From: a virus
Lineage: Duplodnaviria; Heunggongvirae; Uroviricota; Caudoviricetes
Virus record (IMG/VR): IMGVR_UViG_2531839662_000032
Length of the DNA: 31,502 nt
Strand: one strand, 5' to 3'
Part shown: piece after piece, positions 19,944-21,411 of the stretch
How positions within the stretch are numbered: the first letter of the stretch is position 1
Layout: every line of letters begins with the position of its first letter
Notes under the pieces: generated by a model
Seen by the model: the letters and a program-made list of their open reading frames with translations, nothing else
Told to the model about the DNA's origin: nothing
Database searches by the model: none
Made by a program: the position numbers and the translations under genes

Positions 19944-19954
19944 TTTAGATAAAA

Positions 19955-19977
19955 ATGGCCTTTACAGGCCATTATTC
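19955..19977. terminator. Bidirectional hairpin between convergent int and the cargo operon
   Basis: AATGGCC-TTTACA-GGCCATT inverted repeat flanked by A/T runs. Confidence 0.45.
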
Positions 19978-20665
19978 ATATCAATGTATGTTGAATAGAA
20001 TAATTTTCAACACCATAATGAGATGCTAATTTTGATAAAAAACCATCCTTTGAAGATAAAACATCATCTAACATATTTCGTCTTACTAAAGAGACAAAAA
20101 GTGCAGCTGCTCTGGCTTGGCAATTAATAGATTTCTCTGGATTAAATTCAATATCAGTAAATCCATCAAAATTTAATAGATGGAGTGCTAGATTTTTGTT
20201 TTGATTGAGCGCGCTCAAATATAACCAATCATAAAAAGCAGTCCTGGGGACAATGGGCCATATTGTATTATAAAATTTGAAGTTAACTAATCCCCCAGAT
20301 TCCTTTAATCTCATATCTTTTTTTGCTTCTATCGAGCTTTTATCTAAGATATCGACATATGGTCCTCCCATTTCAAATACTTTACTTGCTTGAAATGCAG
20401 ATTCAACTGTAAACTCTTTCCCAAGTCTTTTCGTCTTTATTCTTAGATTAAATGCACTAAGTGCTACCCCCAGCGCATCTTCGGATTTACTAGAAATTTC
20501 CAACAAAGAGCTCAATCCCTGCTCATTCGCTGCTGTATGTAACGCCCTGATCGATTTTTGCTTTTGCGTTTTAGACATACCAGGAGCCCAAGGAAAATCC
20601 ACATCCTTCGTGATCGATAGTAAGTTCCCTGCGTTTGTAGGGACGAAAACAGGTCTAACGGCCAT
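19976..20665 (-). CDS. Hypothetical protein, putative cognate partner of the DarT-like toxin; no macrodomain motifs
   Basis: Starts 3 nt after the DarT-like stop with an AGGA RBS inside the upstream gene end. Only a short local resemblance (EFTVESAFQASKVF) to the NADAR hydrolase signature. AT-rich. Confidence 0.55.
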   Translation of the reverse strand: MAVRPVFVPTNAGNLLSITKDVDFPWAPGMSKTQKQKSIRALHTAANEQGLSSLLEISSKSEDALGVALSAFNLRIKTKRLGKEFTVESAFQASKVFEMGGPYVDILDKSSIEAKKDMRLKESGGLVNFKFYNTIWPIVPRTAFYDWLYLSALNQNKNLALHLLNFDGFTDIEFNPEKSINCQARAAALFVSLVRRNMLDDVLSSKDGFLSKLASHYGVENYSIQHTLI

Positions 20666-20668
20666 AAC

Positions 20669-21283
20669 TTATCCTAAATAATAATGCCTCTGAGAATAAA
20701 GTGTTCTAGCATTAAGATTATCATAATATCTCTGTATTGTCTGTGGATATAATCTCTTGAAATGTTCAGCAGATTCTTTGTTAGGGTGAAAAGTTCTTAT
20801 AATATATGAGGGAGGAATTTTTTCAAATACCAGTATTTCAGCTTGAACATCCGTCGTATACTCACTTGGAAGGTTTACATCTCTCTGAATCCCAAAAACA
20901 TTCTCTGAAAACAAAGCACTAAATGCCTCAGCTCCTTTCATCAAATCAAGATTTATAAAACGAACGTTATTCGAAGCTGCGTTGGTAGGATAAAAAGCGC
21001 AATCCTTAGCCCAAAGAACAGATGGATTGATTTCTAATATAACCCAGTCCCCAGGCTTTAAACATCTATATTTATAAAACATTTTTGCATTAGGGTAACT
21101 TACGGACAAACAAATCGCATCTGGATGACCATCAATCCTTTCTTCATCATTACAATTATATTCATTATCAAGTTCTGAACGAGACATAAGGCCATTATCT
21201 AAAATGGAAGTTAGATTATCGCTATGTGTAAAATGAAACAAGCTACGAATATTACGTTGCTGAATTATTTCCTGTATTGTCAT
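20669..21283 (-). CDS. DarT-like DNA ADP-ribosyltransferase (DUF4433 family) toxin candidate
   Basis: N-terminal IRSLFHFTHSDNLTSILDNGLMSRSEL (HFTH..NL.SIL signature), central ...DAICLSVSYPNAKMFYKYR... and C-terminal ...DVQAEILVFEKIP... with the conserved Glu context, following the DarT layout. AT-rich, between int and the distal repeat. Confidence 0.7.
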   Translation of the reverse strand: MTIQEIIQQRNIRSLFHFTHSDNLTSILDNGLMSRSELDNEYNCNDEERIDGHPDAICLSVSYPNAKMFYKYRCLKPGDWVILEINPSVLWAKDCAFYPTNAASNNVRFINLDLMKGAEAFSALFSENVFGIQRDVNLPSEYTTDVQAEILVFEKIPPSYIIRTFHPNKESAEHFKRLYPQTIQRYYDNLNARTLYSQRHYYLG

Positions 21284-21411
21284 AAAACATCCATTTACTT
21301 CATGTAAATATATGTTTTATATATAACATATACCTCAAGTATCCACAAAGGATACGCATGTGATCTACTTCAAATAAAAGCTATAAATTACAGTTATTTA
21401 CCATTAATAGA

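Follow-up and report, generated by a model that had tools for sequence, protein, structure and literature searches.

A Probable DarT1–NADAR (DarTG1) Gene Pair in the Integrase–att Cargo Slot of a Degraded Lambdoid ssrA Prophage

Introduction

The 31,502-nucleotide stretch of viral DNA analyzed here (IMG/VR record IMGVR_UViG_2531839662_000032), referred to below as the window, carries two small AT-rich genes enclosed between a prophage integrase gene and an att repeat. The question raised by this locus is whether the two genes form a DarT–NADAR-type pair, a canonical DarTG system with a macrodomain antitoxin, or a DarT-like toxin with another kind of immunity protein, and what such a module would do for its host.

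The most relevant reference system is DarTG1 of E. coli C7. Expression of C7 DarT1 is lethal, and the cells are rescued by cognate or non-cognate NADAR proteins (Schuller et al. 2023, PMC11543638). The toxin acts on single-stranded DNA, in which it links guanine, through the N2 amino group, to C1'' of ADP-ribose; the residues E152, N104, M71, R52 and D54 are essential for its activity (PMC11543638). NADAR hydrolyses the resulting ADP-ribosyl-guanine, with E88, K95 and D171 as catalytic residues and K115 required for rescue (PMC11543638). C7 DarTG1 was also the representative system in the earlier demonstration of phage defence (PMC11543638); that primary study, LeRoux et al. 2022 (Nat Microbiol), is cited here via PMC11543638 and PMC11825919, both of which describe phage defence and the block of replication by DarTG1. 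Johannesman et al. 2025 (PMC11825919) describe protection by DarTG1, under its native promoter, from phages that include RB69.

Results and Discussion

Prophage Context

An intact ssrA (tmRNA) gene lies at positions 40–402 of the window. Its 3' end, GCGGGTTCAACTCCCGCCAGC (375–395), is repeated at 21414–21434, with 0 matches expected by chance. The complete direct repeat spans about 146 bp (373–518 vs 21412–21556) and is about 97% identical, the distal copy having a 1-nt deletion in its ssrA-derived part. The features that delimit the element and its recombination genes are the following:

373–518, plus strand: proximal direct repeat, formed by the ssrA 3' end and its downstream flank (repeat search)
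18595–18813, plus strand: small excisionase-like gene that lies 5' of the integrase gene and overlaps its start (ORF; the C7 orthologue is annotated as 'excisionase')
18774–19943, plus strand: prophage tyrosine integrase, 389 aa, convergent with the gene pair (Pfam Arm-DNA-bind_2, 5e-23; Phage_integrase, 1.1e-15)
21412–21556, plus strand: distal direct repeat (att), formed by the last ~29 nt of ssrA and 116 bp of downstream flank (repeat search)

The att-bounded element (about 403–21411) is a degraded lambdoid prophage integrated in ssrA. Its decay is heavy, with many pseudogenes in the annotation of the matching strain UMNF18, where truncation affects the tail fibre gene, J, and the tail tube and head genes. 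The integrase orthologue is named a site-specific integrase in the annotation of both UMNF18 and C7. At the ssrA-proximal end, the prophage encodes a type II restriction enzyme and an m5C methyltransferase, and the gene pair occupies the int-distal end.

Gene Layout of the Module

The module consists of two co-oriented open reading frames on the minus strand, flanked by short noncoding elements:

20669–21283, minus strand: darT1, DNA ADP-ribosyltransferase toxin, 204 aa, stop codon included (ORF, Pfam and PDB)
19976–20665, minus strand: nadar (darG1), DarT1-associated NADAR ADP-ribosyl-guanine hydrolase antitoxin, 229 aa, stop included (ORF, Pfam and PDB)
20663–20675, minus strand: darT1/nadar junction, AGGA-TAA-GTT-ATG (AGGATAAGTTATG; sequence read)
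19954–19973, minus strand: hairpin AATGGCCTGTAAAGGCCATT with an 8-bp stem and a trailing T run, resembling an intrinsic terminator
21284–21411, minus strand: AT-rich upstream region of 128 bp, presumed native promoter (sequence)

The position described in the earlier note, an AT-rich gene pair between the prophage integrase and the distal att, is thus recovered: the integrase gene ends at 19943, the repeat begins at 21412, and the module has a GC content of 33.9% vs 47.4% for the whole window and 43% for the integrase gene.

The two genes do not overlap, and a 3-nt spacer (GTT) separates the darT1 stop codon TAA from the nadar ATG. An AGGA Shine-Dalgarno-like motif is embedded in the final codons of darT1, ahead of the nadar start; together with the short spacer, it makes translational coupling from darT1 to nadar plausible. 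The 3-nt spacing is common to homologous loci of E. coli, Morganella and Dickeya. Downstream, the hairpin directly follows the nadar stop and faces the 3' end of the integrase gene.

Upstream of darT1, a conserved block, GATCACATGCGTATCCTTTGTGGATAC (21339–21365), bears the inverted repeat GTATCC-N5-GGATAC; the loci of E. coli and Morganella share it, and that of Dickeya has it in part. An extended −10-like element, TGTTATATA, is found at 21320–21328, and a block 5' of the darT1 start, GATCACATnCGTAnCCTTTGnGGATAC, is conserved as far as Morganella and may be part of a promoter or operator. These elements were assigned by eye and by conservation. A consensus scan called no sigma-70 promoter in the 128-bp region, and region-wide sigma-70 consensus counts were not above those of shuffled sequence. 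Within the module, an Rfam search at the gathering threshold returned no RNA family.

Identity of the Toxin

The darT1 product matches the Pfam DarT family PF14487 with an E-value of 5.8e-23 (82.1 bits vs a cut-off of 22.5), so that the DarT/DUF4433 layout previously proposed for 20669–21283 is supported by profile search; the PADLOC DarT model matches as well (2.2e-13). Among solved structures, it hits the PDB entries 8BAQ, 8BAR and 8BAS of E. coli C7 DarT1, with an E-value of 7.5e-137. The two proteins are about 98% identical, and their differences consist of a three-residue deletion (NEN) and the S172R substitution (C7 numbering; R169 here), with nothing else.

The catalytic and guanine-binding residues listed for DarT1 in PMC11543638 were located in the window protein, where positions after the deletion are shifted by −3. 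In C7 numbering, the residues H17, F18, R35, N48, D49, R52, D54, M71, F72, K74, Y75, N104, Q150 and E152 are all retained. Both FHFTHSDNLTSIL and QAEILVFE are present. The Glu of the latter stretch, earlier suggested to be the catalytic one, aligns with E152 of C7 DarT1; it appears as an E-to-A mismatch in the 8BAQ alignment because the crystallised protein carries the engineered E152A mutation. Furthermore, an AF2 model of the toxin, obtained with an alignment of homologues (mean pLDDT 82), superposes on 8BAQ with a TM of 0.93. Structures of DarT2, in contrast, show only 14–20% identity to the window toxin, with TM of about 0.55–0.6. The 98% identity to C7 DarT1 vs these low values places the toxin, on sequence grounds, in the DarT1 rather than the DarT2 subfamily.

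Identity of the Partner

The partner matches Pfam PF22397 (NADAR-DarT1) with an E-value of 7.3e-90 over profile positions 1–210 of 212, and PDB 8BAT, the Geobacter lovleyi NADAR, with an E-value of 4.4e-72. With the general NADAR models considered as well, PF22397 alone scored at E ≤ 1. The Pfam matches of both genes, to DarT and to NADAR-DarT1, are above the curated cut-offs. No model of PADLOC 2.0.0 and none of NCBIfam matched the partner; since these resources have no model for it, they alone would leave the protein 'unknown'.

The earlier note had seen no macrodomain motifs in this protein and had taken one short stretch, EFTVESAFQASKVF, as its only lead to NADAR. Both observations hold. 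A Pfam profile search found no match to a macrodomain family at E ≤ 1, and the stretch contains E88 and K95, the signature Glu and Lys of the NADAR/YbiA superfamily, which are largely conserved across it (Schuller et al. 2023, PMC11543638). Compared with C7 NADAR, the partner carries two substitutions, N52S and A177E, and retains E88, K95, K115, D171 and E173; the first four of these were taken from the residues described in PMC11543638. The partner can consequently be assigned as a full-length, single-domain, DarT1-associated NADAR. Of the two options left in the earlier note, the DarT–NADAR-type pair is the one that agrees with the matches of both genes to the DarT1 and NADAR-DarT1 families and to solved structures, and the unclassified immunity protein gives way to a full-length PF22397 NADAR.

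A canonical DarTG2 system, in which ADP-ribosylation of thymidine would be reversed by a macrodomain DarG, is what the names in use would suggest, given that Pfam, for the family, and RefSeq, for the toxin product, both use 'ssDNA thymidine ADP-ribosyltransferase'; this is, however, a family-level label only. The similarities are real: DarTG2 (Thermus, M. tuberculosis, EPEC) shares the ART fold, the H/R/E-type catalytic logic and the toxin-first operon, and it likewise blocks replication by ADP-ribosylation of bases in ssDNA and has an anti-phage role. The target, in contrast, is thymine N3 for DarTG2 and guanine N2 for DarTG1, and the DarTG2 antitoxin is a two-domain macrodomain protein, whereas a single NADAR domain is found here. 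The guanine-coordinating N104 is present in the window toxin, at a position where DarT2 has a His, and the toxin reaches only 28.9 bits with the NCBIfam toxin_DarT equivalog model vs a cut-off of 150. Taking into account the missing macrodomain and the low identity to DarT2 structures, canonical DarTG2 is refuted, and the probability left to it is practically nil.

Distribution and Related Systems

The DNA of the module is 100% identical to that of UMNF18 and ETEC1716, two porcine ETEC strains, and 99.0% identical to that of strain C7. It occurs in 29 of 5,426 complete E. coli genomes, on the chromosome every time, and both genes are already named in the matching RefSeq genomes. A search of the INPHARED phage collection, distant mode included, gave no DNA match to the module.

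Homologues with 59–80% identity keep the toxin-to-NADAR order, the 3-nt spacer and a NADAR of 229 aa, and the homologous pairs are carried by differing mobile elements. In other E. coli prophages, the pair lies in the same int–att slot and adjoins Hachiman or Abi genes; the neighbours in other genomes comprise Hachiman HamA/helicase and AbiTii/AbiGi/Lit-like peptidase genes. In a Morganella prophage, the pair is inserted between the replication and antitermination modules, and in a Dickeya element it adjoins type IV secretion genes. An ssrA-type att core is located about 125 bp upstream of darT1 in all the E. coli loci.

The closest likeness is to C7 DarTG1 (PDB 8BAQ/8BAR/8BAS), which shares the gene pair, its order, the 3-nt spacing and the catalytic residues of both proteins. 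In C7 the module also lies beside an orthologous integrase in an ssrA-associated prophage; the two loci differ downstream of att: a CP4-57-type integrase remnant follows in C7, and chromosomal sequence with ypjA/ehaD follows directly in the window. In the DarT1–NADAR system of Geobacter lovleyi, the antitoxin belongs to the same NADAR clade (PF22397) and aligns over 1–212 without rearrangement, but the system comes from another phylum and is more divergent. The NADARs of the species chosen by Schuller et al. have 48–57% identity to C7 NADAR (PMC11543638). AdfN of T4-like phages (PMC11825919) resembles the window NADAR in being a NADAR that removes DarT1-made ADP-ribose from DNA; AdfN, however, is an orphan counter-defence protein encoded by the phage without a toxin, whereas the NADAR described here is the cognate antitoxin encoded in the operon.

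The implied novelty of the module does not survive these comparisons: the system was published in 2022–2023, its structures are solved, dedicated Pfam families exist and RefSeq names are present. DarTG1 is already known in detail, including its chemistry, crystal structures and defence role, and since the closest solved toxin, C7 DarT1, is only four residues apart, there is little new in the pair itself. What the analysis provides is a clean annotation of a porcine-ETEC-type E. coli whose defective ssrA prophage bears DarTG1 and a type II restriction-modification system at opposite ends. Both should be considered when phage susceptibility is predicted, as in phage therapy of pig ETEC.

Proposed Function

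Every feature of DarTG1 that can be read from sequence was found in the gene pair, and those of DarTG2 were lacking. It is therefore very probable that the module is an orthologue of E. coli C7 DarTG1, carried as int–att cargo of a degraded lambdoid ssrA prophage. Its mechanism is taken from C7 because the proteins are nearly identical: the toxicity of DarT1 expressed alone, the rescue by NADAR, the guanine-N2 chemistry with its reversal, and the protection against phages would all be expected at about 98–99% identity. The toxin–antitoxin or abortive-infection role suggested earlier likewise agrees with the published findings on the C7 orthologue, and would apply here by analogy.

By this analogy, darT1 and nadar would be read as one operon, toxin first, from the AT-rich native promoter to the hairpin terminator. 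DarT1 would take ADP-ribose from NAD+ and transfer it to guanines of single-stranded DNA, at their exocyclic N2. In an uninfected cell, the co-expressed NADAR is expected to strip this modification, so that viability is kept. Upon phage infection, the activity of DarT1 would prevail and the phage DNA would become modified, with the probable outcome that no progeny is released and the infected cell is lost.

The same biochemistry could serve another purpose, and the chief selected role of the pair might be addiction, stabilizing the ssrA prophage remnant, rather than phage defence. The location is suggestive in this respect, with the module at the extreme end of the att-flanked element, beside int; the orthologue behaves experimentally as a toxin–antitoxin pair (PMC11543638), and the prophage persists despite being defective. 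However, the C7 orthologue protects MG1655 under its native promoter and without a surrounding prophage, and phages carry dedicated counter-defences to DarTG1, namely AdfA and the orphan NADAR AdfN (PMC11825919). The defence-gene neighbours of the pair in other genomes also argue for an anti-phage function, and a chiefly addictive role is regarded as unlikely. The one role does not preclude the other.

Repeat Contraction in the NAD+-Binding Loop

Apart from the single substitution, the window DarT1 differs from the C7 protein only in the absence of NEN (C7 residues 40–42). An imperfect 9-bp tandem repeat, AATGAAAAT-AATGAATAT, has lost one of its units, which removed these residues:

21152–21169, minus strand: 9-bp repeat contraction, a single AATGAAAAT/AATGAATAT unit where C7 has two (compared at DNA and protein level)

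The deletion falls between R35 and N48, which in C7 DarT1 contact the phosphates of NAD+ (PMC11543638), and this position would place it in the N-terminal part of the NAD+-binding loop. Among 21 aligned DarT1 homologues, the loop is the segment most variable in length, and the window allele is the shortest, with 5 residues between ELD and ND vs 7–10 in close homologues. In the AF2 model, residues 38–56 are predicted as coil with lower confidence.

Sequences clustered at 90% identity comprise alleles with one, two and three repeat units, which encode 204, 207 and 210 aa, respectively, and keep the frame. The exact 204-aa toxin allele is present on 151 contigs, and the exact allele of the NADAR partner on 153. 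The 204-aa toxin is an established lineage allele. An assembly or sequencing error as the source of the three-residue difference was considered and is ruled out by the recurrence of the exact allele on the 151 contigs.

With the shortest loop among the 21 homologues, a reduced or altered toxin activity is possible. The pair might then be a DarTG1 orthologue whose toxin was attenuated or inactivated by the contraction, a decaying remnant that no longer defends. The site of the deletion, flanked by two residues in contact with NAD+ phosphates, is consistent with such a loss, as are the extreme shortness of the loop and the many truncated genes of the surrounding prophage. On the other hand, the affected segment is precisely the one in which the family varies most in length and for which coil is predicted, the one-, two- and three-unit alleles are all in frame, and the toxin has kept its catalytic residues next to an intact antitoxin. 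The recurrence of the exact toxin allele, accompanied by an intact NADAR allele, also argues against decay. An attenuated or inactivated remnant thus appears quite unlikely, and the NEN deletion is probably tolerated in an otherwise conserved C7-type DarTG1.

A more speculative proposal, which is judged very unlikely, is that the (NEN)n repeat acts as a slippage-driven contingency tract, tuning the activity of the toxin or altering the surface seen by inhibitors such as AdfA. If true, the tract would be a small arms-race device within an otherwise known system. The loop-length alleles also constitute a cheap natural variant series with which the NAD+-binding loop of DarT1 can be probed.

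Prophage element at ssrA

The element that carries DarTG1, the darT1 toxin gene with its paired NADAR antitoxin gene, is a lambdoid prophage bounded by two direct repeats, with a large adhesin gene directly outside the distal att repeat.

373-518 and 21412-21556, direct repeats flanking the prophage element, ~146 bp, ~97% identical
21601-26310, - strand, ypjA/ehaD, large autotransporter adhesin gene

The flanking repeat comprises the 3′ end of ssrA and 116 bp of its downstream flank. Because its length of ~146 bp far exceeds the ssrA core of ~29 nt common to other E. coli loci, the arrangement suggests that insertions at ssrA occurred in tandem or step by step, instead of as one simple integration. 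The ypjA/ehaD reading frame is 1569 aa long when counted from the first GTG, and the annotation of UMNF18, an E. coli genome identical over the DarTG1 module, gives 1526 aa.

According to the identical UMNF18 annotation, the prophage body (window ~3700-17400) is heavily degraded: the tail fibre, J, tail tube, tail and Mu-like gpT head genes are truncated pseudogenes. The ymfK/ymfT/ymfL-like region for immunity and replication is intact, as is the adenine methyltransferase of the same prophage. Two small RNAs are placed in its early region, overlapping the area of an ash-family gene.

14598-14685, - strand, C4 antisense RNA (Rfam, 80.7 bits)
14710-14786, - strand, isrK Hfq-binding sRNA (Rfam, 61.2 bits)

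Defence genes at the element ends and in related loci

Directly after ssrA, at the opposite end of the att-bounded element from DarTG1, lie the two genes of a restriction-modification pair.

637-1845, + strand, type II restriction endonuclease (PADLOC REase_II, 1.5e-233)
1880-3313, - strand, DNA cytosine-5 methyltransferase (PADLOC MTase_II, 3.8e-230)

With this pair at the ssrA end and DarTG1 at the other, the element is therefore a defective prophage with defence cargo at both ends. At two further E. coli loci, whose DarT1 homologue is 80% identical to that of the window, the DarT1-NADAR pair also adjoins defence genes: in L003 a Hachiman-like HamA and helicase, next to a P4-type integrase, and in L005 AbiTii, AbiGi and a Peptidase_U49 (Lit-like) gene. 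The junction of int and att acts as a hot spot for defence genes.

Upstream block and loop-length alleles of darT1

Two short sequence features were located in and before darT1.

21339-21365, - strand, conserved block GATCACATGCGTATCCTTTGTGGATAC upstream of darT1
21152-21169, in-frame 9-bp repeat encoding (NEN)n, darT1 codons ~39-44, in the DarT1 NAD+-binding loop

The upstream block contains the inverted repeat GTATCC-N5-GGATAC and, by locus comparison, is shared by the darT1 loci of E. coli and Morganella and, in part, of Dickeya; it may serve the DarTG1 operon as an operator or promoter element. The E. coli darT1 alleles differ in the number of repeat units, with one unit giving 204 aa (the window), two 207 aa (C7, the strain with the characterised DarTG1) and three 210 aa.

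Second integrative element at ileY

The match between the window and UMNF18 runs to 29263, inside tRNA-Ile (ileY), beyond which the sequences diverge, and ARAGORN detects no intact tRNA in window 29217-31502. The strain that the window comes from is thus not UMNF18 exactly. An integrase gene follows the ileY fragment.

29460-30737, tyrosine integrase, 425 aa

Since the match ends inside ileY, no intact tRNA is detected and an integrase then follows, a further integrative element appears to start at the ileY 3′ fragment and to continue past the window end. The 425-aa integrase follows in the same way in strain HNSQ2209 and in 416 further complete genomes with a coverage of at least 80% of the 29217-31502 stretch.
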